Source: Patescibacteria group bacterium (GTDB lineage: Bacteria > Patescibacteriota > Minisyncoccia > JAHIHE01 > JAGLIN01). Taken from it: a stretch of DNA of 64,000 nt. Below the pieces are notes generated by a model. That model was not told the origin of the DNA, searched no databases, and was given only the letters and a program-made list of their open reading frames with translations. Positions 9,296 to 47,996 of the stretch are shown here, one piece after another (position 1 is the first letter of the stretch; each line of letters begins with the position of its first letter). The stretch is taken from NCBI GenBank assembly GCA_041670805.1, contig JBAXYM010000003.1, positions 16,406-80,405 on the forward strand. Reading direction: 5' to 3'. A program made the position numbers and the translations under genes.

Positions 9296-9745
9296 ATGAA
9301 ACTTATCAGCGCCTGCCTGTGCGGAATAAACTGCGCATGGAATGGAAAATCAAAAATTTCCCCAAAGATACTTGAACTTGTAAAATCCGGAGAATTTATT
9401 CCTGTATGTCCGGAACAGCTTGGCGGGCTAAGCACTCCCAGAATTCCGCAAGAAATACAAGGCGGATCGGGGGAAGATGTTTTGGCGGGGAAGTGCAAAG
9501 TTATAAACAAAGAAGGAAAAGACGTAACCGCCCAATTCGTGAGAGGGGCGGAGGAAACATTGAAAATCGCAAAGCTCACGGGAGCGAAAAAATTTATTGC
9601 CAAATCAAAAAGCCCTTCCTGCGGCTGCGGCTTCACTTATGACGGAACTTTTTCCGGCACGCTGATTGAAGGTGACGGCGTTACCACGGCGCTCTTGAAG
9701 CGGAATGGAATAAAGGTGATAAGCAGCGAAAATATCGAGGGATAA
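9296..9745 (+). CDS. DUF523 family protein (2-thiouracil desulfidase TudS-like, Cys-ligated Fe-S cluster)
   Basis: 149 aa; LISACLCGINCAWNG ... FIPVCPEQLGGLSTPRIP ... KSPSCGCG conserved Cys pattern typical of DUF523. Confidence 0.55.
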   Translation: MKLISACLCGINCAWNGKSKISPKILELVKSGEFIPVCPEQLGGLSTPRIPQEIQGGSGEDVLAGKCKVINKEGKDVTAQFVRGAEETLKIAKLTGAKKFIAKSKSPSCGCGFTYDGTFSGTLIEGDGVTTALLKRNGIKVISSENIEG

Positions 9746-10086
9746 TCTTATCATAAAAATTAGATCCCATACGATAAAATTTTTATATATTTATTTCTGA
9801 TACTTATAAAGCAATGAATATCTAAATCTGAATTGTTTTTTCTTAACACAGTTTTTTTACATTGTGAATTACCCTGTGTGTCCTATGGACAACACAGGGA
9901 GTTCTTACTTCTTAAAAACAAATCATAAGACTCGCGGATGCAGTTTCTTAGCTAAGCAGGATAAAATGTTGAGGGCTGTCTTTTGGATATGGATATGTTA
10001 ACATTTTTATAATCTGTTTATAATTTATACAAAGAGTTTATTTGGTAATCATAGTAAAATATTCGCAAATATGCTAAATTAATGGC

Positions 10087-21470: not shown

Positions 21471-21691
21471 ATATTTTAATTTTCATCATTGTTAATTTTT
21501 CAATAATAGTTTTTACAACCTATTAGAAATCGGTATTAAACTATCGTTACTTTACCTCTTTTTACGCTAAAAGTAAAGAAAAATTGGCAATTCCATATCG
21601 TTTAGAAGACTTAAGTTATCAACAGCTAGTAGTCTGGACGCCCCGCGTGCTATGTGTCATTCATTGTAGTGTAATAAATAAGGGAAAATGT

Positions 21692-27330: not shown

Positions 27331-27543
27331 ATTTTTACCTTCATTTATATGTTGAAAAGATAGACACCTGATCTGCTTTCATATTTATAATATGCCTTAA
27401 AAAGACCGAAAAGTAAAGAATAAAATGAACTTACTATCAGTCAAACGGTAGTGGTTTTTGCTTATAACAAAAACCAGATCCAATTGGATCTGGTTTCACG
27501 CAGGGGGTATGTTTGGTTTGTCCTTGTAGTTTAACATAGAAAA

Positions 27544-27718
27544 CACCCAACAAAATCTGGGTATTCGGGTCTATCCGATACTAAATTGTCTTGGCGGTGT
27601 AAGTGGGTTAAGTACCCATAGCTTACAATCAGTGTAAGGCTTTTCAGGCAGTTTGACTAGAAGCGGTTTTGAGGTACTTGGGTCGGGGTCTAAAATGCAG
27701 AATGAGACAAATGAGACA
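27544..27718. repeat. Junction of islands A and B: ~54-bp repeat Y (duplicate of the tRNA-Ser 3' end plus downstream flank and dyad hairpin) directly followed by repeat X copy 2
   Basis: 27553-27596 ctgggtattcgggtctatccgatactaaattgtcttggcgg matches 47869-47912; 27593-27718 matches 7497-7622. Confidence 0.7.
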
Positions 27719-29377: not shown

Positions 29378-30646
29378 ATGAACAAAGAACACATTAAAAT
29401 TGAGATGGTTCCTATTGACCAGCTAAGGCTGTGCGAATACAATCCTCGGAACTTAAGCGAAAAAAGGGAGAAAGACCTAACCGAAAGCATTAAGAGATTC
29501 GGTCTAGTAGATGCCTTGATTGTGAATAAAAACATAAGCAGAAAGAATGTATTGATTGGCGGACACCAACGTTATGCCATCGCTAAAAAGCTGGGATATA
29601 CAGAAATGCCGGTGGTATTTGTAGATTTACCGCTAGAAAAAGAAAAAGAACTCAATTTGCGTTTAAATCGCAATACTGGGGAATGGAATCTGGATCTGCT
29701 GCGAGAGTTTGATATTGATTTACTCTTGGATATAGGCTTTGATGATAACGACCTAGCAGGTATCTGGGATGAGAATCTGGAGATAGAAGATGATAATTTT
29801 GACTCTGAAAAAGAATTAGAAAAAGCAAAAGAAACAGACATAAAGGTTGGAGACTATTTCGCCCTTGGAAATCATCGCCTCATTTGCGGAGACTCCACTG
29901 ATCTTGGCGTTGTTGAGAAATTGATGGATGGAAGTAAAGCAAACATGATATATTCAGATCCCCCTTTTAATATCGGGCTAGACTATGCCAAAGGCTTAGG
30001 AGGAAAGAGAAACTACGGAGGGAAAGTTAATGATAGTAAGAGCGACAGCGAGTATAAAGATTTTTTGAAAAAGACTATTTTAAATGCAATAACAGTGAGT
30101 AAAGAAGATTTGCATATTTTCTATTACTGCGATCAAAAATTTATCGGCATCCTTCAAGAACTGTATAGAGAGATCGGAATTGATAATAAGAGAGTGTGTT
30201 TGTGGGTGAAAAATGGGATCAATCCCACACCTGATATTGCTTTCAATAAATGCTATGAGCCTTGCGTCTATGGTATAAAAGGGAAACCATACTTGTCGGA
30301 TATCAAAAACCTAAACGAGATCCTAAACCATGAAGTCGGTACTGGGAATAGAACCATTGACGATATTCTAGATATGCTCGATATCTGGCTGGTTAAACGA
30401 TTGCCCGGCCAAGATTATGAACATCCTACAGAGAAAAGTCCCACTCTGCACGAAAAGGCGCTACGCAGATGCACGAAAGTGAATGATATTATTCTCGATC
30501 TTTTCGGGGGTTCCGGATCAACAATGTGCGCATGCCACCAGCTTAAAAGAAGATGTTTTACAGCAGAAATAAATCCTCTCTTTTGCCAACTAATTATTAA
30601 TCGCTTTGAAAAATATGCAAACACAAAAGCAAGAAAGCTCAATTAA
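29378..30646 (+). CDS. ParB-like nuclease domain::DNA methyltransferase fusion (island B paralogue)
   Basis: 422 aa; GGHQRY ParB-N motif; IYSDPPFNIG then DLFGGSGSTMCA; collinear with 10866-12146. Confidence 0.75.
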   Translation: MNKEHIKIEMVPIDQLRLCEYNPRNLSEKREKDLTESIKRFGLVDALIVNKNISRKNVLIGGHQRYAIAKKLGYTEMPVVFVDLPLEKEKELNLRLNRNTGEWNLDLLREFDIDLLLDIGFDDNDLAGIWDENLEIEDDNFDSEKELEKAKETDIKVGDYFALGNHRLICGDSTDLGVVEKLMDGSKANMIYSDPPFNIGLDYAKGLGGKRNYGGKVNDSKSDSEYKDFLKKTILNAITVSKEDLHIFYYCDQKFIGILQELYREIGIDNKRVCLWVKNGINPTPDIAFNKCYEPCVYGIKGKPYLSDIKNLNEILNHEVGTGNRTIDDILDMLDIWLVKRLPGQDYEHPTEKSPTLHEKALRRCTKVNDIILDLFGGSGSTMCACHQLKRRCFTAEINPLFCQLIINRFEKYANTKARKLN

Positions 30647-31370
30647 ATATGGGGAGATAATAAAACTGGGAGAACACAGATTATTATTTGGCGATGCCCG
30701 AGATGAAGAAAGTGTAAAGAAACTGATTGAAAATGATAAAATCAGAACAATTTTAACGGACATTCCGTATGGCATAGATTATGTGCAATCCAAGTCGGGG
30801 TTTAAACAGAATATTGCTAAGCCTAAAGAGATTGAAAATGATCAGACGCAAAGCGAAGCGGAATATATAGAATTTAATGAAAAATGGCTAAAGGCCATTA
30901 TTCCCTTCTTGGAGAAAAAGAACTCGATTTACATCTTCAATTCCGATAGGATGGTTTTTGCCTTAAGACAAGCGATGCTAAATAGCGGAATATATTTCTC
31001 TCAGCTTCTGGTTTGGGTAAAAAATAATGCTGTGATGGGAAGACTCAATTACCTTCCCATGCATGAGCTTATTGCCGTCGGATGGTACGGTACTCATCTC
31101 TTTAAAAAGAGCCAAGATAAAAGCATTCTTTTTTGTCCTAAACCCAATAAGAGCAAACTGCATCCTACCATGAAACCCGTGTCGCTTCTTCGCAGACTTA
31201 TTCTAAACAGCTCTAATATAGGCGATGTGATATATGATCCTTTCGGCGGATCAGGCTCACTTCTTATTGCCTGCGAACAAACAAAAAGAAAATGTTTAAT
31301 GGTAGAAATCGACGCGGAGTATTGCCAGACCATAATCGAGAGATATGACAGATTACCTAAGCGGAGATAA
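30606..31370 (+). CDS. DNA methyltransferase paralogue with atypical motif IV
   Basis: 254 aa; homologous to 12106-12891, but motif IV reads LTDIPYGI (DIPY instead of DPPY); motif I DPFGGSGSLLIA intact. Confidence 0.65.
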   Translation: MKNMQTQKQESSIKYGEIIKLGEHRLLFGDARDEESVKKLIENDKIRTILTDIPYGIDYVQSKSGFKQNIAKPKEIENDQTQSEAEYIEFNEKWLKAIIPFLEKKNSIYIFNSDRMVFALRQAMLNSGIYFSQLLVWVKNNAVMGRLNYLPMHELIAVGWYGTHLFKKSQDKSILFCPKPNKSKLHPTMKPVSLLRRLILNSSNIGDVIYDPFGGSGSLLIACEQTKRKCLMVEIDAEYCQTIIERYDRLPKRR

Positions 31371-31388
31371 CATGTTAACCGAAATTTT

Positions 31389-31898
31389 ATGAACTCAGAT
31401 AAAACTAAGATTACATCGCTGAAGGATCTTAAGGAGAAACAAAAAAAGGAAATAGTGGAAGAGCTTAGAAAGACGCCCATCGTACAATATGCTTGTCAAA
31501 AATATAATGTTCCCAGATCCACCTTCTACAGATGGATGAAGAGCAGCAAGAAATTCAAGAAAGAAGTAAAGGCTGCTTTAACCGATGGATGTGATTTGAT
31601 TAATGACCTAGCAATATCTCAGCTCATTGGCAAGATAAAGAATGGTGACAATACAATGATAATCTTCTGGCTCAAATGTAAGCATCCTGACTTCCTCGAT
31701 GTAAGGCGCATTAATCATGTGATTACAGAAAGAAAAGAAAATCCAATGACCCCGGAGAAAAAGGCGCAAATTGCAAAAGCATTAAGGGGATGGCAATTGG
31801 GCAGAGAAGAGTTAAAATATCTAGCTCATAAATATGCTACGTTGCCCTCAGAGAAATCAGGGGAAAAAGAATCACGGGATAAAGATGAACAGTGTTAA
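31389..31898 (+). CDS. HTH protein, terminase small subunit-like (island B paralogue)
   Basis: 169 aa; YACQKYNVPRSTFYRWMKSSKKF; homologous to 12878-13297; no TerL follows. Confidence 0.4.
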   Translation: MNSDKTKITSLKDLKEKQKKEIVEELRKTPIVQYACQKYNVPRSTFYRWMKSSKKFKKEVKAALTDGCDLINDLAISQLIGKIKNGDNTMIIFWLKCKHPDFLDVRRINHVITERKENPMTPEKKAQIAKALRGWQLGREELKYLAHKYATLPSEKSGEKESRDKDEQC

Positions 31899-32806: not shown

Positions 32807-33067
32807 AGTTTTGTAGGATAGGTTTTTTAAATTGTTTCTGGCTCAGAATACAAAAAGGGTCTTCCGAACCAGCTGGTGAATCCTTCCGGAGACACCACTA
32901 CCTCCTTTCGAAGATAGACCTATCCTACAAGTACTAGTCAGAAGACCGTTGCTATGTAGGATAGGATTTGATTACCATGCCCTGACCGAAGCCAGAGTTT
33001 AGGCAATTTATGAGTATATAGTAGCACAAATATAGAAAATGGGAAGTCTTAGTTACCTACAGTTTAT

Positions 33068-34171
33068 CTACTTACCTTTAGTCTTTTTCTTGAAGTCATT
33101 TTCGACTAGTTTCAAGAGATTTTCTTCGCCTTCTACGCCTTTTAGCCTTCCTTGAAGAAAACCAAGGCGATAGTCAATTCCGCTACTCATTAATCTCCAG
33201 TTTGTTGGCGCGAGAGTTTCCTTTATAAGTCTTTGCAGATTATGAACGCTGTCATATTTTTCTCGAACCGGTTTATTATCTTGTAAAGTAAAACCTAAAA
33301 TAATATCCTTTTTAAACTCAGGCTTTTCAAACTCAAGTTTAATATAACTATTATTTTCAACTACAGGATTAAGAAGATTTTGCAGTTCTGCTATAGTAAG
33401 CTTCTTTATTCTGCTAACAGCATCATAAACATCTTTGTTCTCTTTTTCGTCTTTATATTTCTCAACAAGTTTTCCCATCTGTTCTGCTCGGCTTATAATT
33501 TCATATCCTTCTTGTTCGGAAATGCAATATTTCTTTCGGTTGGCTTCAAAATTGGGATCTATCTTTTCCTCTTTTCTCTCATTTAAATCCCATGTGTCGG
33601 TTTCCACATGACCACAATGTGAACAAGAGTATGCGTGAGCAATAATATCTTTCTCTCTTTTACTTTCTGTTTGCACTTCAAAATTACATTTTATACAAGT
33701 TGGCTTATGTTCCCATTCTGTTCTATCTTCCCAATAACCCCGGCGTTTTCCGCACTTAGCACATTCAAACATAAATAGCACCTCTTCTTTTCCCTTATGA
33801 TTATTCAAAAGATCTCGTGATATGCAGTTTTCCAAAAGTGAGCTACAGCCTAAGCATCGAACGCCTTGTGGTTCTTTGGCATTAATAATTTTCTCGTCTT
33901 TCTCTTTGTCTCGTTTCATCCATTCTTGAATTGTTTCAGATTTTTTAGAGGCACGCTCTGCTTTAATGAAATATAGGGCGATAGGTATGACTGAGTTGTA
34001 AAAACATCTTTCCTTAGCTTCTTCGATTTCCTTTTCTTTGCCTTCTAGTTTAGAAATGTCTTTAGAATATTGGCGCTTCTCCCACCACTGGCATTTTTCG
34101 ATAGTAAACTTATCGTAAAGTTCACTGTAATAAAGTTGATCCTTTAAGTGGATATATGGTCTATCGTTCAT
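33068..34171 (-). CDS. Hypothetical protein with multiple CxxC zinc-ribbon motifs
   Basis: 367 aa; CLGCSS, CAKCGK, CIKCNF, CSHCGH pairs. Confidence 0.35.
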   Translation of the reverse strand: MNDRPYIHLKDQLYYSELYDKFTIEKCQWWEKRQYSKDISKLEGKEKEIEEAKERCFYNSVIPIALYFIKAERASKKSETIQEWMKRDKEKDEKIINAKEPQGVRCLGCSSLLENCISRDLLNNHKGKEEVLFMFECAKCGKRRGYWEDRTEWEHKPTCIKCNFEVQTESKREKDIIAHAYSCSHCGHVETDTWDLNERKEEKIDPNFEANRKKYCISEQEGYEIISRAEQMGKLVEKYKDEKENKDVYDAVSRIKKLTIAELQNLLNPVVENNSYIKLEFEKPEFKKDIILGFTLQDNKPVREKYDSVHNLQRLIKETLAPTNWRLMSSGIDYRLGFLQGRLKGVEGEENLLKLVENDFKKKTKGK

Positions 34172-34293
34172 ATAATTATATTATTGTGTTACCTAAACAC
34201 ATTATTTTATCTGATATTGGCTAGGATGGCTAGCCATTTTAACAATAATAACCACTTATAAGTGGTTACTTTAACTGTTTGGAGTATTATAAT

Positions 34294-34722
34294 CTAACGA
34301 TAATATCTCTTTTTGTGATATCGTCGTCCGCTTGGTTCCCAAAGATAAGGCCAGAATCCAGATAGATGTAACAACAATCCCGATGAAATAAATACAACAA
34401 GATGGATTTCGTATGGCCATACCATGCAATATACAGAATCACCAAATAATTTCTCAAAGGATAAAAGTAGTAATGCTTGCAAACCTGTGTAAGTACCACT
34501 GCCAACAAAACGATTGAAGGACGGAGAAAAACCATTTTTAGAATTGTAGTGAAACGTACCATTTCGGGTTAATATTTCCCAAGCGATCCATATAAAGAGA
34601 AATATAAGTATAACAAGCCAATACCATGGCCATAGTGTATAGATTATCTGCCATAAAAATGAAGATGCGGATGAAGCAAATGGAATAGAAACTATGGAAC
34701 AAATATCACCTACTGAAAACAT
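34294..34722 (-). CDS. Small multi-pass membrane protein
   Basis: 142 aa; W/L/I-rich hydrophobic helices; upstream of and co-oriented with the ABC-ATPase gene. Confidence 0.3.
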   Translation of the reverse strand: MFSVGDICSIVSIPFASSASSFLWQIIYTLWPWYWLVILIFLFIWIAWEILTRNGTFHYNSKNGFSPSFNRFVGSGTYTGLQALLLLSFEKLFGDSVYCMVWPYEIHLVVFISSGLLLHLSGFWPYLWEPSGRRYHKKRYYR

Positions 34723-34765
34723 CCTCTTAGTATTAATTTATTATTTTGAATTGTTAATTATATAT

Positions 34766-37174
34766 CTATAACCCTAATTTTATGTATCTATCAATCTGAC
34801 CCTTAAGTTCATGCCATGAAGTTTGACCGTCTTTCGGAAAATGTGCCAACCCTCCAGTATTACAGTAAGAATATATTTCTCTAATATCCTCTATTTTACT
34901 AACAACATCTTTTACTCTACCACTTTGTATAGCATCAAGTATATATTCAAATTTATCTTCAGAATAACCCAAATGACGATCCTTGATTTCCTCTAAGCAG
35001 TAACGGAGTTTTTGTCCATAAATTACTATCATATCATCAGTTCCAGAAACAGAATTAACATTTCGAAAGTCATTTCTAAATGTTGAATAAATCGTATACA
35101 ATTCTTTAGGCCTAAAATGTATTGATGAGGAAGCTGATTTTAATATATAATAGAAGTTTCTAGATTGTCCTAGTGCTTTATTGCAAAATTTTAGACAATA
35201 GCACCTAAAAAGCGAATCGCATGTAAAAATGAATGATTGATTATAATTTATAGCTTCTTTATATATTTGTTCAGCGGCCTGTTTTCTTTTACCTGCATCA
35301 AAACAGTTGATCGGATCATCAAATACAACAATCTTTTTATTTTTATTTTGTTGCTTGTTAAGATCAGCAAGAAAATAACTGATTGCAATGGCTTGTTTTT
35401 CCCCTTCACTTAACTCATTTAATCTGTCTTTACTATTATACACAACCTCCAAACCACAAGTAACATCACCAATACGAAGGTCGTATTTCGGGTGGGATCC
35501 TATTATCTTCAACTTCAATTCAGGACAGAAGATATTAAGATTCTTCTCTATTTCACCAAAATGTATGTCCACAAAAGTTTTAAAACTATATTCGACTTTT
35601 TTTCTAAGGGAATCAAATATTTGCCTAAGCTGTCTTATTACTTCCTTATTATCAGCTATTTTTGCTTCACATTTAAAAATATTTATTAAAGCTAAATAAT
35701 TTTTGCAAACAAATATCTCATAATTATTCTTTTCTAATTCAGAGGCTAAGTCGTTCTTTTGTTTTTCTAAAGCGCCGGAATCAATATCCAATTTTATCTT
35801 CAGTAATTTCGATTTAACTTCTTCAATAACTAGGTTGTATGCCTGAATTTTTCCATTAACATCATTTATAGCTTCCGTTATTGACGTAATATCAGCAGTA
35901 GCCTTAATCGTAATATTCCTAAGTTTACTATCAGTATTAGCAATCTCTTTTTTAAATATTTCCACTTGCGCATCAGTCAAGGAAAGATCGGGTAAAATGA
36001 ATTCTGTTCCAATAAGCTTATTAACGCATGTTATTACGTCTAAGTTATTATTTGGATTTTTAGTACCCAATATGTTCAATATGTGTGTTTTATATGCTTC
36101 AAGTGTTCTTATGGTCTTATCTTGGTTTTTTATAAATTCAGCATCAAAGATCTTTTCATACTCGCTGATTGGATCAATATATCCATTCTTATCTTTAATT
36201 CCTTGCTTGCAGAAAGGACAAATATCAAGTTTTTCTTTATTTATGATATCCGCACCTTCTCTGATAAAATTTTCCTTTTTGTTTATTTCTACAATTGTTC
36301 TAGCCGCAGACAATCCAATGGTAAAATTAAAGGCAGATTCTACTTTATTTTTATCAGGATGTACCAAAGTATTAAAAGTATCCGGTTCTACTATTTTTTT
36401 AATTTCTTCCGATTGAGATAAACTTTTCACTATTTTCTGTATGTCGCTTGATAAAATGAGTGACTGTTTTTCTATATCATCGATTTGATCTTGTAATTTG
36501 TCGGGACTCCCTTCAGTTATATTCAAAACAGCTTTTTTGACTTCATCTTGTCCATAAACAGATGTAATCGAAGAATAACTAGTGTCGTTTTTTATCCCTA
36601 GACCACGATTAACCTTTTCTAATTTATCAATCAGCTGAGATAGATTATCAAGTTGGACTTTATATTGAAAGAAATCACCTAGATATAGCATCAATTTACC
36701 TGTGTTTTTATTATGATTTGCATCCCTGCCAGTTCGAGAAGAATGTATGAAATTTTCTATAAAATCTCTATCGAAAAATAAAATCTTATCTTTGAGAGAA
36801 TCATTTTGTATGCCGTTTACGTCATCATAATTAATTGCACCAGAATCAGTTTCAATAACAAAAGAACTTGTATCACCTTCATGATCCCAATGTTTCTTTA
36901 AAGATTCCCCTGAATCAGTATTTAAGCTTTTAAAAATTTTTACAATAGTGGTCTTGCCAGCACCATTTTCTCCAAAAAATACGTTATGTTTATTAAATTC
37001 ATTTTTTATTACCTTAGGATTCCCGTTTTTGTTTGATATAGGTTGTCCGTGTGCATCAAAAACTAGTGAGGGATTTGAAGAGTCCCAATCAAAGAGGAAA
37101 AACGAACCAATATTGCTAATCGTCGTTAGTTTACTTATCATTTTCTTTTTGTTGCTCGACCCAGAAATGGCCAT
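34766..37174 (-). CDS. ABC/SMC-like ATPase with a coiled-coil insert carrying a Rad50-like CxxC zinc hook (RloC-like architecture); C-terminal domain of unknown function
   Basis: 802 aa; Walker A FFGENGAGKTTIVKIF, signature-like LSEGEKQAIAISYFLA, Walker B IVVFDDPINCFD, central LDICPFCKQG between heptad-rich segments. Confidence 0.5.
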   Translation of the reverse strand: MAISGSSNKKKMISKLTTISNIGSFFLFDWDSSNPSLVFDAHGQPISNKNGNPKVIKNEFNKHNVFFGENGAGKTTIVKIFKSLNTDSGESLKKHWDHEGDTSSFVIETDSGAINYDDVNGIQNDSLKDKILFFDRDFIENFIHSSRTGRDANHNKNTGKLMLYLGDFFQYKVQLDNLSQLIDKLEKVNRGLGIKNDTSYSSITSVYGQDEVKKAVLNITEGSPDKLQDQIDDIEKQSLILSSDIQKIVKSLSQSEEIKKIVEPDTFNTLVHPDKNKVESAFNFTIGLSAARTIVEINKKENFIREGADIINKEKLDICPFCKQGIKDKNGYIDPISEYEKIFDAEFIKNQDKTIRTLEAYKTHILNILGTKNPNNNLDVITCVNKLIGTEFILPDLSLTDAQVEIFKKEIANTDSKLRNITIKATADITSITEAINDVNGKIQAYNLVIEEVKSKLLKIKLDIDSGALEKQKNDLASELEKNNYEIFVCKNYLALINIFKCEAKIADNKEVIRQLRQIFDSLRKKVEYSFKTFVDIHFGEIEKNLNIFCPELKLKIIGSHPKYDLRIGDVTCGLEVVYNSKDRLNELSEGEKQAIAISYFLADLNKQQNKNKKIVVFDDPINCFDAGKRKQAAEQIYKEAINYNQSFIFTCDSLFRCYCLKFCNKALGQSRNFYYILKSASSSIHFRPKELYTIYSTFRNDFRNVNSVSGTDDMIVIYGQKLRYCLEEIKDRHLGYSEDKFEYILDAIQSGRVKDVVSKIEDIREIYSYCNTGGLAHFPKDGQTSWHELKGQIDRYIKLGL

Positions 37175-37375
37175 CAGAGATTAACCTTTTTTCTAATTCT
37201 TCTGAGGTATCCTCTAAGCTGATAAGGCTTTCAGCTAGAGATTTTAAGCCATTATCCTGAGTTTCGGATATAAAATTTATTAATAGATCGTCCATGTAGT
37301 TAAGAATCTAGTTTATTTAATTACTCAATTAATGGGGCATATAACATTTTTACTTTGATCAATATTCGCCCCATT

Positions 37376-40300
37376 TTATTTTTCCAATGATTCTACAAAT
37401 CTTAATAATTTTTTAATCTCTCCTTCTTTATCTTGGAACCAATTCGTTGACCAAATACGATAAACAATGAAGCCCATATTTTCCAGTTCTTTCTGTCTAT
37501 ACATATCATAAGCATAGGCTTCTTCTGAAGAATGGTATGCTTTTCCGTCACACTCTAAAACTACGTCCTTAGACCCTGTCTTAATCACAAAATCTAATCG
37601 AAAGCCGCCAACCTTATATTGTTGAATGATATTGTCTTTTTCAAAATGATCTAATAATAATTCATAAACTTCTTCTTCAAATGGAGATTCAGATAAACCA
37701 TCTGTGCTAGAGATGATTCTAGGTTTTTCGAAACTTTGTGTTTTTAACAGTTTCAATATATTATCAGCACATTCATTGTCATGATTCGAGATTGCTTCGG
37801 CATAAGCCAAATACGCGTACAAAATGCCTTTCTTGTTATTGCCTTCGTTTTTTATTATTTCAGAATAGGCAAGGTATTTATCCTTTGGAATAGAAGTACA
37901 TACATAAAGCTTATGCTTTGCTCTCGTAATCAAAACATTCAATAATTTATACCCCTCGATCCTATTCAATCGCGCAAAATTCTGAGAAAACGTTCCATCT
38001 GGTTTAATTCCATAAGTAGTTGAAATGATTATAATGTCTTTTTCGTCACCCTGGATATTTTCCAGATTTTTAACAAATAAGCCTCTCTCCCTTAACTCCT
38101 GAAGTTTTATTGCAAACTCAGAATCATTTTCAGCCACCTCGTTTAAAGCTTCCGTTATCAAATTTCTTTGATTTATATTGAAAGTCGCTATTCCCACGGA
38201 TGGATATTTGCCTTTTTGGTCAGGATGGATCTCATCTCGGATAATTTTCAGGATTTCGGCTATTTCGGCAGGATTAGTTCTTGTTTCATACCTACCATTT
38301 ACAGCTCTGAATTCAATGGGTTTATAAACTTCTTGAGCAGGAAAAGAAATCAAGTTGCCTCCATAAAATGCGCTATTGGAAAATTCGATAAGGGCCGGAT
38401 GGTTTGATCTATAATGAAAGTCCAAATATGACTTATTGATATTTTGTAGATCCGTCGCATATTGGAGCAAAGACTCACTCTCAGCAAGAACATTCTGTTC
38501 ATCCTCTTCGTTAAAAACATCATCGTTATCTTCTTTTTCTTCAAGATCAAGCGCTTCAATCGTACTTTGAAAATAATTTGATGGTGGCATTTGATGTTCA
38601 TCTCCGGCAATAATTTTATATTGTCCCCGAATTAAACTTGTGAAAGTATCAGGTATTCTAAGCTGACTTGCCTCATCAAAGATAACAATATTAAAAAGTC
38701 CCTGTTTGAGAGGCAAAATCGCATTTGCGGCGGCAGGATTTGTTAAGATTACTGGAAATAATGTTGTAAACAAATCGAAATCTTTTTCAATTATATTTCT
38801 TAACGAATTCTTCGGACCAGCATTGTTTCTTCTTAAGTTATAGAGAGTATTAAAATTAAAAGTAATTTCAGACAGCTTGTGATTTCTATTATCGTTCCAA
38901 ACGGATTTGATTTGCTTAATTTGTTGCTTTTCTAGCTCTTTGTATAGAACAGTTAATTGTTGTAATTTGGAATCAGATTTGTGGAAACCTATACCTGTAT
39001 TAGATTCATAATTCAAAAGTGCCCCTCGATAATACCAAGCATTGAAGATGTTTTTCCAATTTTCTACTGGGAATCTCTTAAAAGCTGATAAGATTTGCAA
39101 TTCAAATTCATTCTTATTACTGCAAAAATATTTCCAATTATGAAAACTTTCGTACGAATCCAGGTAACTTTTTATTTTCTCAATCTTATTTTTAAGTTCT
39201 AAATAATATTTGCATACCGATTCATGACTTCCTAAATCGCCATAATTTATCAATTCAAAATCAAAGATTTCATCTTTCTTAATTTTAGCTAAATTCGTCT
39301 CTGCTTGTTTCAGTTTAATTTCGATAGCTTGTATCATTTTGATTTTGGATTCAGCACTCCTAACTTTAGATAAGACCTCAGATACATTACTTTTCAACTG
39401 CTCATATGAATTATATTCTTTGAAATCTGGCATTTTCCGTATTTCAAAATTAAACTTTTCCATTTCCAAAATAGATTTCGATACAGAATCATACAATACA
39501 GAAATTTTCTTTCTGATAGTGAAAATTTTTCTATTTTCAGCATTGGCAATAGATGAAAGACTAAGCAATAGATCCTGCCAATAACCTTTACTATTAAAAC
39601 TGCTACGATTTAAAGCAATACCTTGCTCATATAAATTAATAATTTCTTCTAGATTTTCTATAGCATTTAGTACGACAGCGCCACTTTCCTCTACAGTTTT
39701 TGGCACAAATAGAGAAACATTCTTTTCTTCACAGTCATTCTGCTCCTTGTTCGATAAGAATAAATATATGTTTTCTATAATTTCTAGGAATTTACTTGTC
39801 TCATCTTTTATTTTTTCCTGCGTTGCCCATTTATATCCTATTGAAAATAGACGATGATCTAGCATTTGAAAAATTCCTTCCGCATTGTTTTCTAAATCGC
39901 CAAAGAGAAAACTGCCTTCTTCCACTAGTGATAAATAAGTTGAATACTCTTTATGGCTAAATTCTAACTTTCTATAATCTAATATTGAATTTATCTGATC
40001 TATATCTCCAGATTTTGAAAATCTCAGATATAATCCTATCAACTGTTTCCACGAAAAATCACCGAAAACTTTTTTTAGTGATTCGGCATGCTTTGAATTT
40101 ATTTCTCCTTTAAGCTGACAGAATTTATTATATTTATCATTAAATTCTGATTCGGAAAATAAAGTATTATGTGAGCATTCTTTAATATTTCTAGCCCTTT
40201 CGATAGTCTTTTTTCTGTCTTTATTCACATCGTCGATAACCATTGAAAAATCTTCTAGTCCTATCTTTTCTAAATTTGCATGGATAACATCAAGAGCAGT

Positions 40301-41566
40301 CTTTTTCTCACAAACGATTAAGCATGTAGCATTATTTGCCAAAGCATTAGAAACAATTGCGGTAATGCTTTGACTTTTGCCAGTACCAGGAGGACCTTGA
40401 ATCAGTTTAATTTCATCTTTTGTTAAAGTGTTCACGATCTCTTCCTTGCTTGGATCAGTCTCAACTGCAGAAATAGTAGATGTCTGAAATTTTTCTAAGA
40501 CTAATTTTTCACTTTCGAATTCTTCAAATCTCTCAAGTAGCTCTTCCGTGGAATGAATAATAGTTTCGTTCTGTGATCTATAAAGGCCAAAGACCCCACT
40601 CCATTGTATCCAAGGTTTAGAATTAGCAATCGCCTCAACCTGTTTTGCATCGGGACATTTCTCAATCTTTATTTCTAAATTGTCTACCTGAGAATTTAAC
40701 TGGGATAAAATATTTTTACTCAATGCTATAAGTTCGTTTTGGTCTAATATTCCATCTTCCAGTATCTTTTCTGATATCTTTTCAATCTGAACAGATTCAT
40801 CTTTCGATAAATGAGAAACCAGTAGTTCGTTTATCTTAATTGGCGAATCCTCCTCTTTTTTGATTGTCCAAGTATTCTTATTCTGATAAGAACGCTGAAT
40901 ATCTAATTGCCAAATAAAAAGAGGAGCTTTTATAATCTTCGTAGGATCATTTCGATCACGCTTTATTAATATAGGATATCCAAAACCAAAATTTTTAAGC
41001 CCAAACTCCAAGAAATTGTCTTCATTCTCTATTACGATAGCATTTAATCTCTTCGATATAAGTGCAAGTCTTTTCTTTTCCTCCTCATCTATTTTTCCTA
41101 AATCAATTTTGTCATAGGAAATTGAAAATGAAAAAGACTCATTGTTAAGAATCGTTTCGATAAAATCAAACGGCATTTTTTGATCCACACTCATTAATTG
41201 GCATAAATCGAGACGGATCGCAGAACGTCCCGGAATTACATTCAGATGAATAGAACGAGCATTCCCAACCTTTAGTTTATCGAGCAATCTCTTTACGAAA
41301 TTTTTATCAAATTTTATTTGCGATATTTTTTGCTGAGCTTCTTGATTGCTTACATTAGAGTGCATTTTAGTTGTTTTGTCAGTGAAAACAGCAGTGGAAT
41401 TATCTTCTGTTTTTGTGGTTGTCGATATTTTTTTGTCCTGCTTCATTACTTCTTGCTTACAATAGGAACAAACTGTTCCACTTTTTACTTTATGATTTTT
41501 GCATACAATGCATAGGGGCTTATTTGCCCAATATGCTTGTGCGTCAAACTTGCGATAAGATTTCAT
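37376..41566 (-). CDS. Giant Upf1/DNA2-like SF1 helicase with an N-terminal zinc ribbon and a C-terminal Vsr/DUF559-type PD-(D/E)xK endonuclease domain
   Basis: 1396 aa; N-terminal CIVCKNHKVKSGTVCSYCKQ; Walker A LIQGPPGTGKSQSITAIV; motif II IFDEASQ; C-terminal GFRLDFVIKTGSKDVVLECDGKAYHSSEEAYAYDMYRQKELENMGFIVYRIW. Confidence 0.65.
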   Translation of the reverse strand: MKSYRKFDAQAYWANKPLCIVCKNHKVKSGTVCSYCKQEVMKQDKKISTTTKTEDNSTAVFTDKTTKMHSNVSNQEAQQKISQIKFDKNFVKRLLDKLKVGNARSIHLNVIPGRSAIRLDLCQLMSVDQKMPFDFIETILNNESFSFSISYDKIDLGKIDEEEKKRLALISKRLNAIVIENEDNFLEFGLKNFGFGYPILIKRDRNDPTKIIKAPLFIWQLDIQRSYQNKNTWTIKKEEDSPIKINELLVSHLSKDESVQIEKISEKILEDGILDQNELIALSKNILSQLNSQVDNLEIKIEKCPDAKQVEAIANSKPWIQWSGVFGLYRSQNETIIHSTEELLERFEEFESEKLVLEKFQTSTISAVETDPSKEEIVNTLTKDEIKLIQGPPGTGKSQSITAIVSNALANNATCLIVCEKKTALDVIHANLEKIGLEDFSMVIDDVNKDRKKTIERARNIKECSHNTLFSESEFNDKYNKFCQLKGEINSKHAESLKKVFGDFSWKQLIGLYLRFSKSGDIDQINSILDYRKLEFSHKEYSTYLSLVEEGSFLFGDLENNAEGIFQMLDHRLFSIGYKWATQEKIKDETSKFLEIIENIYLFLSNKEQNDCEEKNVSLFVPKTVEESGAVVLNAIENLEEIINLYEQGIALNRSSFNSKGYWQDLLLSLSSIANAENRKIFTIRKKISVLYDSVSKSILEMEKFNFEIRKMPDFKEYNSYEQLKSNVSEVLSKVRSAESKIKMIQAIEIKLKQAETNLAKIKKDEIFDFELINYGDLGSHESVCKYYLELKNKIEKIKSYLDSYESFHNWKYFCSNKNEFELQILSAFKRFPVENWKNIFNAWYYRGALLNYESNTGIGFHKSDSKLQQLTVLYKELEKQQIKQIKSVWNDNRNHKLSEITFNFNTLYNLRRNNAGPKNSLRNIIEKDFDLFTTLFPVILTNPAAANAILPLKQGLFNIVIFDEASQLRIPDTFTSLIRGQYKIIAGDEHQMPPSNYFQSTIEALDLEEKEDNDDVFNEEDEQNVLAESESLLQYATDLQNINKSYLDFHYRSNHPALIEFSNSAFYGGNLISFPAQEVYKPIEFRAVNGRYETRTNPAEIAEILKIIRDEIHPDQKGKYPSVGIATFNINQRNLITEALNEVAENDSEFAIKLQELRERGLFVKNLENIQGDEKDIIIISTTYGIKPDGTFSQNFARLNRIEGYKLLNVLITRAKHKLYVCTSIPKDKYLAYSEIIKNEGNNKKGILYAYLAYAEAISNHDNECADNILKLLKTQSFEKPRIISSTDGLSESPFEEEVYELLLDHFEKDNIIQQYKVGGFRLDFVIKTGSKDVVLECDGKAYHSSEEAYAYDMYRQKELENMGFIVYRIWSTNWFQDKEGEIKKLLRFVESLEK

Positions 41567-41576
41567 ATTTAATAAG

Positions 41577-42122
41577 TTATTTATACCAAATCATATAATC
41601 TACCCTTTTTCCTATTATATGTACGAGTACTTGAACGTCACCATCAGGATTTAGTATCTGAATAGTACTTTCTTTTTTTCTAGAGTCGATATATTTCGTA
41701 ATCGCCGGTGATAAAATATCATTATATGATTTTTTAGAAGGATACGAATATAAAGACCAATCTATGCCATTGCCGCTACCATCAGAATACTCTTCTCTTC
41801 CGACTTCTATCCTTGCATCATCATACCAATATTCATAATATTGATTATGCTCATCATTTCGAATATTATTAGGATTTCCGTACAAACCCTTTGCATTTTC
41901 AAAATTTAAACCCGGCAAAAAGGTGTGAAAAAGTGTAGTGTCTACTAGATCTGATAATTTAGCTCCTTCAACTGGTTTTATGGTAAGCCAGTGCTGATAA
42001 AACTCAATACTTTTCACTGGCGGTTCTCCAGCAATTTCATTTCGGCTTGACTGAACATAAAAAATTCTACCCAAAAGTAATAAAGATATTATAGCGACCG
42101 CTATTAGTACGTTTTTATTCAT
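41577..42122 (-). CDS. Secreted hypothetical protein
   Basis: 181 aa; signal peptide MNKNVLIAVAIISLLLLG. Confidence 0.35.
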   Translation of the reverse strand: MNKNVLIAVAIISLLLLGRIFYVQSSRNEIAGEPPVKSIEFYQHWLTIKPVEGAKLSDLVDTTLFHTFLPGLNFENAKGLYGNPNNIRNDEHNQYYEYWYDDARIEVGREEYSDGSGNGIDWSLYSYPSKKSYNDILSPAITKYIDSRKKESTIQILNPDGDVQVLVHIIGKRVDYMIWYK

Positions 42123-42331: not shown

Positions 42332-43651
42332 ATGGAAATAAACGGACTTCAGACCGCAAACCAGACAATCATAGCGAAGGAAGAAATAAAGTATTGCCTC
42401 TATGCCCGCAAATCAACCGAATCAGAGGAACGGCAAATCCTCTCAATTGATAGCCAAGTCAAAGAGATGCTGGATCTGGCAAACCGGGAAGATCTGAATG
42501 TTATAGAAATAAGGCGAGAATCACATAGCGCTAAAGAAACCGGACAGCGCAAGGTGTTTAATGAGCTTGTAACAGATATTAGGGCAGGTAAATTCAATGC
42601 CCTCCTCACTTGGGCCCCGGACAGAATATCACGAAATGCTGGAGATTTAGGAGCGATCGTAGATCTGATGGATCAAGGAATATTAAAAGAGATCAGAACT
42701 TACGGTCAGAAATTTAGCAATAACCCAAATGAAAAATTTTTGCTTATGATTCTAGGATCGCAGGCGAAACTGGAAAATGACAACCGAGGAGTCAATGTCC
42801 GGCGAGGATTAAGGACAAGAGCAGAGATGGGATTATGGGTAGGATTGGCACCTCTCGGATATTTGAATCAAAAACGAATGGATAAGAAATGTCAGGTTAT
42901 TCCAGACCCATTAAGATCTCCAGCTATTAAACAGATATTTGAAAAAGTGGCGTATGAGAAATATAGCGGACGACAAATACATAACTGGCTCAAGCATGAT
43001 CTTAACTTTTATACCAGAGGAAACAAGCCGCTAACTTTAAGTGGAGTTTATAGAGTCTTAGACAATCACTTTTACTATGGCATGTTTGAAAGGCCAGTTG
43101 GAAGCGGAAATTGGTATCATGGAAAACATAAAACACTTATTACCCAAGAACTTTTTGAGAAAGCGCAAGCACAACTTAAAAGAGATAAGATTGTCAGAGA
43201 AAATAAGGAATTTGCATTCACCAAACTAATTACCTGCGGGCTATGTGGTTCAGGAATATCAGCCGAAGAAAAATATAAAGAATTGAAGGATGGAACCACA
43301 GCTCATTATATTTATTATGGATGTAGTCGAGCAAGAGACAGATTTTGTAAGAACAAATATATTAGAGAAGAAGAACTCGTTGTTGAACTTCTTAAGATAA
43401 TTGATAAGGTAGATATAAACGAACTTGGAATGCTGACAAGACTTGAGATGGAAGTTGATAGATTCAATAAATTCCAAAACATGGTCTTTGGAGAAAAACT
43501 TAATAATAAAAAACAAAAGCCCGCAGTTGATATGCGGGTTTATGCAAAATATGTGCTTAAAGAAGGAAGTGTGACAGAGAAGCGAGAGTTATTAGCTAAT
43601 CTGAGGAGTAGAATAATATTGAGAAATAAAAAGCTAATATTAAATGATTGA
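42332..43651 (+). CDS. Large serine recombinase (paralogue of 21692-23014)
   Basis: 439 aa; same catalytic and zinc-ribbon motifs; near-identical over most of its length; preceded by a ~120-bp leader conserved with 21560-21690. Confidence 0.8.
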   Translation: MEINGLQTANQTIIAKEEIKYCLYARKSTESEERQILSIDSQVKEMLDLANREDLNVIEIRRESHSAKETGQRKVFNELVTDIRAGKFNALLTWAPDRISRNAGDLGAIVDLMDQGILKEIRTYGQKFSNNPNEKFLLMILGSQAKLENDNRGVNVRRGLRTRAEMGLWVGLAPLGYLNQKRMDKKCQVIPDPLRSPAIKQIFEKVAYEKYSGRQIHNWLKHDLNFYTRGNKPLTLSGVYRVLDNHFYYGMFERPVGSGNWYHGKHKTLITQELFEKAQAQLKRDKIVRENKEFAFTKLITCGLCGSGISAEEKYKELKDGTTAHYIYYGCSRARDRFCKNKYIREEELVVELLKIIDKVDINELGMLTRLEMEVDRFNKFQNMVFGEKLNNKKQKPAVDMRVYAKYVLKEGSVTEKRELLANLRSRIILRNKKLILND

Positions 43652-45228: not shown

Positions 45229-45834
45229 TTACTTGGTGTAAGAGATAATGCCCTTTACAATTCCTTCGATTCTAAAATTGTTTTTATTGGCCAAAAAAGG
45301 CTCGAAGGATGGGTTTAAAGAAACAAGGATAATATCGTTTCCAGTTTTTTGAATTTTCTTAATCAACGCTTCGTCATTATTCACGCATACTACCATATCT
45401 CCATTATCTGCTTTATTATTTTTTTGGACGATTACCAAATCGCCACTTTTTATTTTAGGTTCCATAGAGTTGCCTTTAGCTCTAACCAAAAAAGCATCCG
45501 AAGAAGAAAATCCCAGTATCTTTGTTGATATAGGTACCCTTTCTATTGGATTACCATCCAAAATTGATCCATTTGGGCCGCATTGCGCCATTCCGTATAA
45601 GTTTAAAAATGCAATTCTCTTATCCGGAGAATCAATCAAGATTTGATAATCCTGTGGATTCCTGGGATTTCTCCTTAGATATCCTTTTATTTCAAGTTGT
45701 CGGACATGATGATGAATTATGCTTGTCGATGATATATCTAATTCATCTTTTAGCTCTCTAACGGTCAAAGGATCTTCGATATTATCCTTTAGTAAAGCAA
45801 GTAATTTTTGCTGTGTAGGATGCAGTTTCTTCAT
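45229..45834 (-). CDS. LexA-like repressor (N-terminal wHTH plus C-terminal S24 peptidase, Ser/Lys dyad)
   Basis: 201 aa; AKGNSMEPKIKSGDLVIV (Ser nucleophile) ... MVVCVNNDEALIKKI (Lys); divergent from the Ubl/E2-E1 operon. Confidence 0.6.
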   Translation of the reverse strand: MKKLHPTQQKLLALLKDNIEDPLTVRELKDELDISSTSIIHHHVRQLEIKGYLRRNPRNPQDYQILIDSPDKRIAFLNLYGMAQCGPNGSILDGNPIERVPISTKILGFSSSDAFLVRAKGNSMEPKIKSGDLVIVQKNNKADNGDMVVCVNNDEALIKKIQKTGNDIILVSLNPSFEPFLANKNNFRIEGIVKGIISYTK

Positions 45835-45956
45835 AAAATTACTTATATTTATTATTTATTATACCATGTGGATAATATGTGTGCAAGAACTTATTGACCT
45901 GTTCTAGTATTTGTTCTATACTGAATTTAAATTAAATAATCATAAGTAACAAAACT

Positions 45957-46235
45957 ATGAGCAACTCAGAAGAACACAAGGGCGAAGCGCCTGGTCAGAA
46001 CAAAGAATCTACGATAATTGTAAATGGCAGGGAAAAAATTGTAACTGGAAAAGAGTTAACCTTTACTCAAATTGTCGAATTAGCTTTTGGTCCTTCAACA
46101 AATCCAAACACTATTTATACGGTAATCTATAAGAAAGGTGATAATGACAAGCCTGAAGGTACTATGGTAAATGGTGATAAGGTTAAAATTAAGAATAAGA
46201 TGATATTCAATGTCACAGCAACTGATAAATCATAG
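45957..46235 (+). CDS. Small beta-grasp ubiquitin-like candidate protein
   Basis: 92 aa; first gene of a three-gene overlapping operon with the E2::E1 fusion; mixed K/G beta-strand pattern (GDKVKIKNKMIF); C-terminus is not Gly-Gly. Confidence 0.35.
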   Translation: MSNSEEHKGEAPGQNKESTIIVNGREKIVTGKELTFTQIVELAFGPSTNPNTIYTVIYKKGDNDKPEGTMVNGDKVKIKNKMIFNVTATDKS

Positions 46236-47385
46236 CCCTGATCTAAAAAGATTAAGGGATGACGGTTTTGAAATAGAAATTGTATCAGGTTACCTTTTGA
46301 TTAACAATGTGCCCTATTTTGATTCAGATAAAAAGCCTGTATACGGTACTCTTATTTCAGAGCTTACTTTGGCTGGAAATAGAACGACAAAACCCAATAC
46401 TCATGTTGTTCATTTTAAAGGTGTGTATCCTTGCAATAAGGATGGATCGGAGATAGAACAAATCAGGCATAATAGCAACTTGCAAACGCTTGCCGATGGA
46501 TTAGTGGTCGACCATTCATTTTCCAATAAACCGCCCGAAGGATACAATGACTATCATGAGAAGATGACAAGATATATAGATATTATTTCTGCCCCGATCC
46601 AATCAATGGATGGTTCTATTACAGCAAAGACATTTAAGCCTGTCGAATCTGAGGATGAGGATTCCGTATTCCATTATATTGATACAAATTCTAGCAGAGC
46701 AGAAATCAACCTAATTTCCGACAAATTAAAATATCATAAAATAGGAATCATCGGATTAGGAGGTACTGGTTCTTATATTTTAGATCTTATCTCTAAAACG
46801 CCGGTAAAAGAAATTCATCTTTTCGATGGAGATAAATTTTTGCAACACAATGCGTTCAGAACGCCAGGAGCAGCATCAATTGAAAAACTGAAAAAATGCC
46901 CGACCAAAATCGAATATCTTAAAGAGATATATTCGAACATGCATAAGAATATTTGCCTGCATCCCGGCTTTCTTGATTCCTCAAACATTGAACAATTGTT
47001 TGGCATGGATTTTATCTTTATTTGCATAGATAAAGGCGAAGTAAAAAAACTAATATTTAAATATCTTGAGGAGAAAAATATTCCCTTTATTGATGTAGGT
47101 ATGGGAGTATCTATCGTAGATAATAAATTATTTGGAAATATCAGGACTACTTCCAGCAAGGAAAACAAACGAGATCATATAAAAACGAGGGTCCCTCTTG
47201 TAAGCTTGGAAGATGATGAATATTCAACTAATATTCAAATTGCCGAACTTAATGCACTCAATGCGGCATTTGCTGTAATAAAGTGGAAAAAAATATGCGG
47301 ATTTTACCTCGATCAAGAAAATGAGAATAATAGCACATTCGCAATCAATTTAAATACATTAATAAGCGATGATCATGATTCATAA
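46210..47385 (+). CDS. E2-like domain fused to an E1-like (ThiF/MoeB-family) adenylation domain
   Basis: 391 aa; C-terminal Rossmann [17 protein letters not shown] plus downstream Asp (LFDGD); N-terminal ~150 aa with an [15 protein letters not shown] Cys-containing motif; overlaps both neighbouring genes. Confidence 0.55.
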
Positions 47386-47791
47386 ATTTGTCGAAAATAT
47401 TCCAGACAATCTAGAAGAAGGAACTATCTATATTTCTATTGAATATGGAACTGTTGTGCATAAATGCTGTTGCGGATGTGGAAACGAAGTGGTTACACCG
47501 CTTTCACCAACAGATTGGCAATTGATATTTGATGGTGAAACTATTTCACTTTACCCTTCAATCGGAAATTGGAATTTTGATTGCAAATCACACTATTGGA
47601 TAATTAATGATAGGATTAAGTGGGCAAGAAAATGGTCTAAGCAGGAAATTGATGGTAATAGGCAAAAAGATAGTTTAGATAAAAAGAAATATTATAGTCC
47701 TAAAGATTCGTTTTATAACAAAGAAATACACAGTGAAAATAATAAAGGATTAAAAAACCTATTGAATATGATTTCTCGTTTCTACAGGTAG
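47369..47791 (+). CDS. Small protein with a Cys-cluster (zinc-binding) motif, third gene of the Ubl/E2-E1 operon
   Basis: 140 aa; [11 protein letters not shown] ... FDCKSH. Confidence 0.3.
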
Positions 47792-47857
47792 TATGAAATT
47801 AGTCTTTAGTCATAAAGGTCGAAAAATAATACAACTTCAAATTTTATTAGCATGAAA

Positions 47858-47912
47858 ATACCCAGCAAAAGCTGGGTATTCGGGTCTATCCGATACTTTG
47901 TTGTCTTGGCGG
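47858..47912. repeat. ~54-bp repeat Y copy 2 (dyad hairpin, tRNA downstream flank and last 6 nt of tRNA-Ser); right end of island B
   Basis: atacccagcaaaagctgggtattcgggtctatccgatactttgttgtcttggcgg; duplicated at 27544-27596. Confidence 0.7.
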
Positions 47913-47996
47913 AAGAGGAGGGATTCGAACCCTCGAGACCCGTTAAGGTCTACTGCTTTTCGAGAGCAGCGCTTTCAACCACTCAGCCACCCTTCC
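47907..47996 (-). tRNA. tRNA-Ser (anticodon CGA), type II with long variable arm, CCA encoded
   Basis: rc reads GGAAGGGTGGCTGAGTGGTTGAAAGCGCTGCTCTCGAAAAGCAGTAGACCTTAACGGGTCTCGAGGGTTCGAATCCCTCCTCTTCCGCCA; anticodon loop CUCGAAA with U33 and A37; T-arm GGTTCGAATCC. Confidence 0.85.

Follow-up and report, generated by a model that had tools for sequence, protein, structure and literature searches.

A predicted helicase-nuclease and a divergent RloC-type cassette, probably juxtaposed in a phage-like element of Patescibacteria

We analysed a stretch of 64,000 nucleotides (nt) from a Patescibacteria group bacterium (contig JBAXYM010000003.1, positions 16,406 to 80,405; called the window below), which is part of a 160-kb metagenome contig. 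Our subject is a block of genes at positions 33,068 to 41,566 of the window. The block probably consists of three juxtaposed units, which occupy the cargo slot and the backbone of a phage-like serine-recombinase element. They are a helicase-nuclease gene predicted to target DNA, a two-gene cassette in which a small acidic protein precedes an RloC-type ATP-binding cassette (ABC) ATPase with a predicted HEPN domain, and a pair of backbone genes that encode a membrane protein and a Zn-ribbon protein. As an overall reading, a DNA-targeting first line with an anticodon-nuclease backup seems to us fairly probable.

The original prediction described four co-oriented genes on the minus strand, and the open reading frames (ORFs) were as stated, with lengths of 367, 142, 802 and 1396 amino acids (aa). 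Its descriptions of the ATPase as RloC-like and of the helicase as a Zn ribbon, an Upf1-like core and a Vsr/DUF559-type nuclease agree with the AAA_13 match, the zinc hook, the settings of the ATPase relatives in islands or by restriction genes, and the helicase domains and motifs given below. However, it had also proposed that the genes form one multi-component surveillance system. This proposal did not survive, because the Zn-ribbon and membrane genes occur without the ATPase and the helicase, and helicase homologues occur without the other genes.

The ATPase and its small upstream gene

Residue numbers of the ATPase follow the 802-aa ORF from the first ATG. The start is likely to be M12 (nt 37141), which gives 791 aa; the identical protein is annotated by NCBI from M12, and homologues start there too. 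The protein matched Pfam AAA_13 (1e-30), which we take to be the family that holds PrrC and RloC, and PADLOC PDC-S06 (1e-24). Its ABC motifs are Walker A (GENGAGKT, 68-75), the signature (LSEGE, 588-592) and Walker B (IVVFDD, 615-620), and the Walker B/D-loop segment comprises IVVFDDP (615-621) and D626. A predicted coiled-coil insert between Walker A and the signature carries a CPFC zinc hook (C319-C322), and the region flanking the hook matched Rad50 coiled-coil and head constructs in a profile search.

In an exhaustive profile search, 9028 cluster representatives proved to be related, and 559 of these reached E ≤ 1e-30. The window protein was aligned with 117 full-length representatives from the 150 best matches, which gave 118 sequences. 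The Walker A Lys, the DDP motif and R724 were present in 118/118, and E728 and both Cys residues of the hook in 117/118. A pattern search detected the downstream motif [C/S][N/K]x3-7H in 86/118.

RloC has been defined as a protein of 658-897 aa with ABC motifs, a coiled-coil insert with a CX2C hook, and a C-terminal triad, Arg-X3-Glu-X36-52-His, whose mutation abolishes anticodon-nuclease activity (PMC2610378). The window ATPase falls within this size range (791 aa, or 802 from the first ATG), has the ABC motifs and the hooked insert, and carries the triad R724-x3-E728-x49-H778, which is invariant among the seven closest homologues. The original prediction doubted that the C-terminal ~200 aa were the RloC nuclease, and both the spacing of the triad and the conservation of its Arg and Glu argue against this doubt. 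The predicted model of the C-terminal domain matched HEPN RNases, with an all-alpha fold and the catalytic residues of that superfamily, and the assignment of PrrC and RloC to HEPN is published (PMC3710099). The linchpin His of the H-loop, or switch, is replaced by Cys652. Two relatives carry the Joint Genome Institute (JGI) name 'wobble nucleotide-excising tRNase'; the window protein is only 26% identical to the JGI-named RloC relative P0006. No match to the ATPase was found by tblastn against plasmids and GenBank phages. From these motifs, we regard the ATPase as a divergent member of the RloC family that departs from the definition in one listed motif, the H-loop His. By analogy with its characterised relatives, it would act as an anticodon nuclease that cleaves tRNA.

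Directly upstream of the ATPase lies a 54-aa ORF with a net charge of -9, and its stop overlaps the ATPase start (ATGATAAGTAA). Ten loci (the window, L003, L004, L005, L016, L018, L020, L069, L071 and L072) carry a homologous ORF of 50-62 aa, mostly acidic, just ahead of the ATPase gene; they are all of the loci of the ATPase sub-clade with visible upstream DNA. The stop overlaps or abuts the ATPase start across the ten, and their sequences have a recognisable common pattern. The small ORFs of the window and L003 are 81% identical and differ by 11 synonymous and 10 non-synonymous codon changes. The 54-aa protein had no match in Pfam or PHROGs. Its recurrence and overlap point to a conserved, translationally coupled partner gene of the ATPase sub-clade. 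A 70-aa ORF upstream of the ATPase in L023 was also considered as a homologue and was rejected, as it encodes an XRE-type helix-turn-helix (HTH) protein.

The expected H-loop position was occupied by His in 102/118 sequences and by Cys in 15/118. Within the sub-clade, Cys or Ser (FT[C/S]D or FSCD) was found in all 11 members having that region, a set that includes the 5'-truncated L017 and L019 and excludes L020, of which only the N-terminus is available. The same 11 members carry the nuclease motif CNTGGLAH. The sister clade has FTHH and is without the small ORF. Because the His is lost in exactly the clade with the small ORF, we take the small protein to be a probable regulator of the ATPase switch. 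Moreover, its variation follows the clade of the ATPase rather than the restriction partner, and thus it would act on the ATPase itself. Most likely it is an inhibitor or an antitoxin-like factor that compensates for, or exploits, the lost His. The accessible portions of the RloC and ABC-HEPN literature contain no mention that we found of this combination of small ORF and H-loop change.

The helicase-nuclease and the genes beside the ATPase relatives

The 1396-aa protein begins with a Zn ribbon (CxxC-x10-CxxC, residues 19-36), followed by superfamily 1 (SF1) helicase motifs (GPPGTGKS at 391, DEASQ at 964 and GDEHQ at 988) and by intact nuclease residues (RLDF at 1323 and ECDGK at 1338). It matched Pfam AAA_11, AAA_12, MTES_1575 (6e-24) and DUF559 (6e-8), while a match to DUF4011 was marginal (E = 0.005, under the gathering score). 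Sequence matches in the PDB were Sen1, IGHMBP2, DNA2 and Upf1.

In PADLOC, the best match was PDC-S37 (2.3e-129, 431 bits, in two stretches), and Hhe gave 3e-68. In NCBIfam, the protein matched ProA (NF058533; a name that comes from NCBIfam alone) with 2e-127 and 426.7 bits against a cut-off of 1500, and Hhe (NF042953) with 6e-88 and 295.8 bits against a cut-off of 2000. The alignments to Hhe and ProA were restricted to residues ~580-1395, the C-terminal ~700-800 aa, and do not reach the full-length equivalog level. As judged from these profiles, the helicase-nuclease is a relative and not a member of Hhe and ProA. The strong hidden Markov model match and the single-gene organisation both agree with PDC-S37, which to our knowledge is a predicted and not a validated system. 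The gene is best described as a stand-alone, predicted DNA-targeting defence gene of the PDC-S37/ProA/Hhe kind. The E. coli Hhe is likewise a single-gene system, in which mutation of the nuclease active site abolishes defence (bioRxiv 10.1101/2022.06.16.496414).

At least 994 homologues of the helicase were found, mostly in metagenome-assembled genomes of Patescibacteria, and many are 60-76% identical. An AAA_13 gene was present near 0/39 of the relatives' loci (0/5 genome loci and 0/34 viral-contig loci), and the five genome loci were also without the small ORF, the membrane protein, the Zn-ribbon protein and the 181-aa ORF that precedes the helicase in the window. The neighbours of the helicase were not conserved, save for a DUF2130 gene in two near-identical loci. 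The order of the block, whose conservation the original prediction proposed to check, is not kept in these loci, and the link between ATPase and helicase survives only as one of a restriction-linked kind.

The DUF2130 protein lies directly 3' of the helicase homologue in these two loci (L009, 7460-8737; L010, 4579-5835), and a DUF2130 protein also lies 3' of an ATPase homologue that is 38% identical (L017, 2068-3408). It may recur as an accessory of these cassettes or be there by coincidence.

The ATPase relatives were gathered from a protein database, a metagenome scan and a representative search, and 18 loci, the window included, had visible upstream context. The immediate co-oriented upstream gene was a component of restriction-modification (RM) in 11/18. 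These partners were type IIG (L003, and MmeI in L021), type I (L004, L022 and L034), an M-S fusion (L016), type III (L008 and L025), GmrSD/HNH with an EcoRI-like methylase (L006), a C5 methylase with a MutH-like nuclease (L024) and a C5 methylase with HATPase_c_3 (L069). In L004, where the ATPase is 34% identical to that of the window, the order is HsdM, a Fic/RhuM gene, HsdS, HsdR and the ATPase.

In the window and in L029, the gene immediately before the ATPase encodes an SF1 helicase-MTES_1575 nuclease. The two helicases are 25% identical and the two ATPases 23%, whereas the backbone genes of L029 are 67% (ParB-methylase), 69% (methylase) and 54% (recombinase) identical to those of the window. 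Because the defence pair is far more diverged than the backbone, the pairing of helicase-nuclease and ATPase seems to have been assembled independently, and it has probably been assembled twice.

The host element and its backbone genes

The defence cargo lies between a large serine recombinase and the Zn-ribbon gene, and the GC content of the block is low (0.29-0.39, against 0.40-0.55 in the flanks). Homologues of the recombinase (54-73% identity) flank cargo in L029, L034, L058 and L063. The window has two serine recombinases that are 92% identical and 20.6 kb apart, and a 79-nt repeat with copies 81% identical, the second of which overlaps the 3' end of a tRNA-Ser(CGA) gene (Table 1). The two recombinases and the repeat at tRNA-Ser suggest that two integrative elements lie in tandem at a single tRNA gene. 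In each of them the defence cargo adjoins its own recombinase.

A trio of ParB-N6/N4 methylase, second methylase and TerS-like HTH protein (169 aa in the window) belongs to the backbone and is kept in L029, L063, L064 and L072; a large terminase adjoins it in L063 and L072. The elements may be prophages or phage satellites of Patescibacteria.

The Zn-ribbon protein has four CxxC pairs (C106/109, C137/140, C159/162 and C183/186), which are invariant or nearly so in 69 homologues. At least 189 full-length homologues were found in Patescibacteria, whereas a comparable search with the ATPase gave 7. Its AlphaFold2 model was confident (predicted local distance difference test, pLDDT, 86.6); structure matches were limited to generic ferredoxin-like folds (PilO, GspL and tail terminators), and tblastn against GenBank phages gave no match. 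The membrane protein has hydrophobic regions at 25-55 and 106-124.

The cargo beside these genes differs between loci. L058 has, in this order, a KAP NTPase, a membrane protein of 145 aa (77% identical), the Zn-ribbon homologue (74%) and a 60%-identical serine recombinase. The Zn-ribbon homologue follows GmrSD, HEPN AbiU2 and DUF4238 cargo in L060 and L061, and an FtsK-like gene in L059. In the IMG/VR loci L062-L064 it occurs together with the ParB-methylase, and in L063 and L064 the serine recombinase and the TerS-like gene are also present. The order in L063 is recombinase, type I RM, a 1035-aa ABC ATPase, Zn-ribbon protein, TerL, TerS and ParB-methylase, which is the order of the window with different cargo. 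Among the ATPase loci, the membrane protein was found in the window and in L003, where a 79%-identical protein lies 3' of the ATPase, and was absent from the others. Because the membrane and Zn-ribbon proteins are found with recombinase, ParB-methylase and terminase-like genes, their gene contexts identify them as element backbone and not as defence components.

Several further observations concern the element. The original prediction had overlooked three features on the minus strand, namely the 54-aa ORF, the 181-aa ORF and a LOOT RNA. The LOOT RNA sits in a 261-nt gap between the Zn-ribbon gene and a 299-aa ORF, on the same strand, and a second copy, truncated at the 3' end, adjoins the serine recombinase in L063 (1-100, minus strand). 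It may form part of this element family of Patescibacteria. In L063, the cargo position just ahead of the Zn-ribbon gene is likewise taken by an ABC ATPase beside restriction genes (type I RM), namely the 1035-aa ABC/SMC-like protein (6882-9989, plus strand; AAA_21, SMC_N); tblastn did not relate it to AAA_13. The 181-aa ORF had no match in Pfam, PADLOC, NCBIfam or PHROGs, and a homologue was absent from every helicase and ATPase locus examined. Likewise, Pfam (E up to 5) and PHROGs gave no match for the 54-, 142-, 181- and 299-aa proteins. A promoter and terminator scan of the region performed no better than on shuffled sequence. The hairpin after the helicase is marginal (-16.5 kcal/mol, z-score -2.1) and is without a U-tract after its stem; it may serve as a processing site or as a weak terminator.

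Further defence-type genes lie in the same low-GC region, at 14803-17430, 17435-21470, 24622-27330 and 45229-47791. These loci hold a PifA-like KAP NTPase (5e-59), a type III RM pair and a full-length PDC-S53 helicase (E = 0). The set also includes a LexA-like repressor and a trio of Multi_ubiq, DUF6791-ThiF (E1-like) and DUF6527.

Table 1. Features of the block and its surroundings, in window coordinates
Feature	Position (nt)	Strand	Remark
LOOT RNA (Rfam RF03000)	32875-33005	-	full-length, 63.7 bits (gathering 46.4), E about 1e-9
Double Zn-ribbon protein, 367 aa	33068-34171	-	element backbone gene
Membrane protein, 142 aa	34294-34722	-	element backbone, paired with the Zn-ribbon gene
RloC-type ABC ATPase	34766-37141	-	791 aa from M12; first ATG at 37174 gives 802 aa
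Predicted HEPN-fold nuclease domain of the ATPase	34769-35077	-	C-terminal; predicted model matches HEPN RNases
N772-x5-H778 (with the triad His) of the ATPase	34841-34861	-	nuclease triad
R724-x3-E728 of the ATPase	34991-35005	-	nuclease triad
FTCD of the ATPase	35216-35227	-	Cys652 at the expected ABC H-loop (switch) His
CPFC zinc hook of the ATPase	36209-36220	-	C319-C322
Acidic ORF, 54 aa	37131-37295	-	between helicase and ATPase; conserved
Hairpin	37331-37375	-	in the 80-nt gap 3' of the helicase stop; by folding
SF1 helicase-MTES_1575 nuclease, 1396 aa	37376-41566	-	Pfam, PADLOC, NCBIfam, motifs
181-aa ORF	41577-42122	-	10 nt upstream of the helicase; one N-terminal hydrophobic segment
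Large serine recombinase	42332-43651	+	Resolvase, Recombinase and Zn_ribbon_recom domains
Other serine recombinase	21584-23014		92% identical to the above
79-nt repeat, first copy	27539-27617		
79-nt repeat, second copy	47854-47932		overlaps tRNA-Ser(CGA)
tRNA-Ser(CGA)	47907-47996	-	
ParB-N6/N4 methylase, second methylase, TerS-like HTH protein	29378-31898	+	backbone trio
Element A cargo			type III RM and PifA-like KAP NTPase
Element B cargo			the studied block; element about 27.6-47.9 kb, next to tRNA-Ser

Alternative readings and known systems

In the reading that we prefer, the SF1 motor of the first unit would bring its Vsr-like PD-(D/E)xK nuclease to foreign DNA. The second unit would be the RloC-type cassette, with the small acidic protein coupled to the ABC-HEPN ATPase; in most relatives this cassette lies 3' of a DNA restriction enzyme, and the helicase-nuclease would fill that slot here. 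The anticodon nuclease would be held silent, by analogy with PrrC and RloC, until it is triggered by disturbed DNA restriction or by DNA ends or damage. Then tRNA anticodon loops would be cut, translation would stop, and the infection would be abortive. The membrane and Zn-ribbon proteins would form the third unit, as element backbone. This mechanism is modelled on the literature on PrrC and RloC (PMC2610378, PMC3458546 and PMC3874168). These two enzymes are the classic cases of a second-line, translation-disabling backup that watches DNA restriction.

Several points weigh against this reading. The 18 loci are a small, non-random sample of metagenome contigs, and 5/18 (L072, L027, L023, L026 and L033) show that the cassette can stand without a co-oriented restriction gene beside it. 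In the window, helicase and cassette are set apart by an 80-nt gap that includes a hairpin. The adjacency to restriction genes may reflect the crowding of defence islands or a common promoter, without cross-talk. The likeness to RloC and PrrC is drawn from published definitions and not from a bona fide sequence of the family; the sequence and profile searches found Rad50, SMC, AriA and ABC transporters, and no solved PrrC or RloC structure. The HEPN model was built on a 7-sequence alignment and has a pLDDT of 70. Finally, the altered H-loop may mean that the ATPase cycles unlike RloC, or that the ATPase is regulatory only.

The gap with its hairpin, together with the absence of the ATPase near helicase homologues, would also be expected if the helicase-nuclease and the RloC-like cassette were independent genes in the same cargo slot, with no common signal or regulation. 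The ATPase relatives stand beside many different partners, or none, and unrelated defence candidates crowd the whole island. We consider such pure co-location a possible but less than likely account, since 13/18 ATPase relatives lie directly 3' of a co-oriented DNA-cleaving module, often with gaps of 0-40 nt, and the pairing with a helicase-nuclease recurs in L029 at only 23-25% protein identity. There is also an experimental precedent for cross-talk, in that the type Ic restriction enzyme linked to PrrC keeps this nuclease silent (PMC2610378).

At the other extreme, the Zn-ribbon protein, membrane protein, ATPase and helicase-nuclease could be parts of one surveillance system, as originally proposed. 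The genes are co-oriented with short gaps, and the membrane protein also lies 3' of the ATPase in L003, whose ATPase is 72% identical. However, the Zn-ribbon protein has far more homologues than the ATPase; a KAP NTPase, GmrSD/AbiU2, type I RM or FtsK takes the place of the ATPase and helicase beside it; L058 has the membrane and Zn-ribbon pair without either enzyme; and the other three genes are absent from the helicase loci examined. This makes a single system very improbable. We give still less credence to an ATPase that serves the element in repair or recombination, as a Rad50/SbcC/RecN-type protein and not an RNase. The family profile matches Rad50 heads in the PDB (1.5e-9), the protein combines a zinc hook with a coiled coil, and NCBIfam gives a weak RecF-like match; yet no Mre11/SbcD-type nuclease partner is present, and the C-terminal HEPN domain has an invariant R-x3-E...H triad that Rad50 and SbcC lack. 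AAA_13 is the best-matching family, with SMC_N under its cut-off (23.8 bits against 40), and the neighbours are restriction genes and not repair genes. With this C-domain, and in a low-GC island with a recombinase, the ATPase did not classify as the canonical chromosomal RecN/SbcC protein that the original prediction had named as its counter-case.

A wider proposal, which we put forward tentatively and think rather doubtful, is that the RloC sub-clade with the Cys/Ser switch and the ~55-aa silencer or sensor is a toxin-antitoxin-like 'guard' cassette. It could stand behind any DNA-cleaving immune enzyme and be fired by phage anti-restriction factors or DNA ends. If this were true, its partners would be type I, IIG and III RM and, first shown here, Hhe-type helicase-nucleases, and the principle of PrrC-EcoprrI would extend beyond RM and to the mobile elements of Patescibacteria. 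The occurrence of a helicase-nuclease, which is not RM, upstream of the ATPase in two loci suggests that a guard logic may be generic to DNA-cleaving immunity. The small partner gene and the altered ATPase switch would offer a simple regulatory handle on RloC silencing. More generally, Patescibacteria (also known as the candidate phyla radiation, CPR) carry phage-like serine-recombinase elements with a defined cargo slot that shuffles defence genes, and for annotation the backbone genes (Zn-ribbon and membrane) can be told apart from true defence cargo.

Among known systems, RloC, a wobble-nucleotide-excising anticodon nuclease with a Zn- and DNA-responsive ATPase (COG4694, with its prototype in Geobacillus kaustophilus), is like the window ATPase in size, ABC motifs and the Rad50-like insert with a CPxC hook. 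Triad spacing, the HEPN-fold C-domain (from the model) and an occasional to frequent linkage to restriction genes are also shared. The window sub-clade differs in having Cys or Ser for the linchpin His and a coupled acidic ORF of 50-62 aa, of which we found no mention in the accessible RloC literature. The window ATPase also has Ala before the catalytic His, where Ser is usual, and its host is a mobile element of Patescibacteria. Restriction linkage is commoner here (11/18) than in the reported RloC cases (8/72; PMC2610378).

PrrC-EcoprrI is likewise an ABC-HEPN anticodon nuclease in or near a DNA restriction operon, and it is released by T4 Stp. It provides our working model of a second line that acts once restriction has been compromised. 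However, PrrC has about 341-416 aa, half the size of the window ATPase, and is without coiled coil or zinc hook. PrrC is always linked to type Ic RM, whereas the upstream gene in the window is a helicase-nuclease and not hsd, and the partners of the ATPase relatives are diverse (type I, IIG, III, IV, C5-methylase-linked and helicase-nuclease). ABC-HEPN proteins in RM neighbourhoods with Fic/Doc or RhuM have been described, and a 'multi-pronged defence' has been proposed for them, in the accessible part of PMC3710099, which mentions no small acidic partner. That context is matched exactly by L004, while the window has a helicase-nuclease in place of RM and no Fic/Doc gene.

The window helicase is like Hhe, ProA and PDC-S37 in its SF1 core, its C-terminal MTES_1575/DUF559 nuclease and its single-gene organisation. 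It is about 400-500 aa shorter than Hhe and ProA, aligns with them only over the C-terminal region given above, has an extra N-terminal Zn ribbon, and shows only a marginal DUF4011. The predicted candidate PDC-S37 (2e-129) is the closest to it of these systems.

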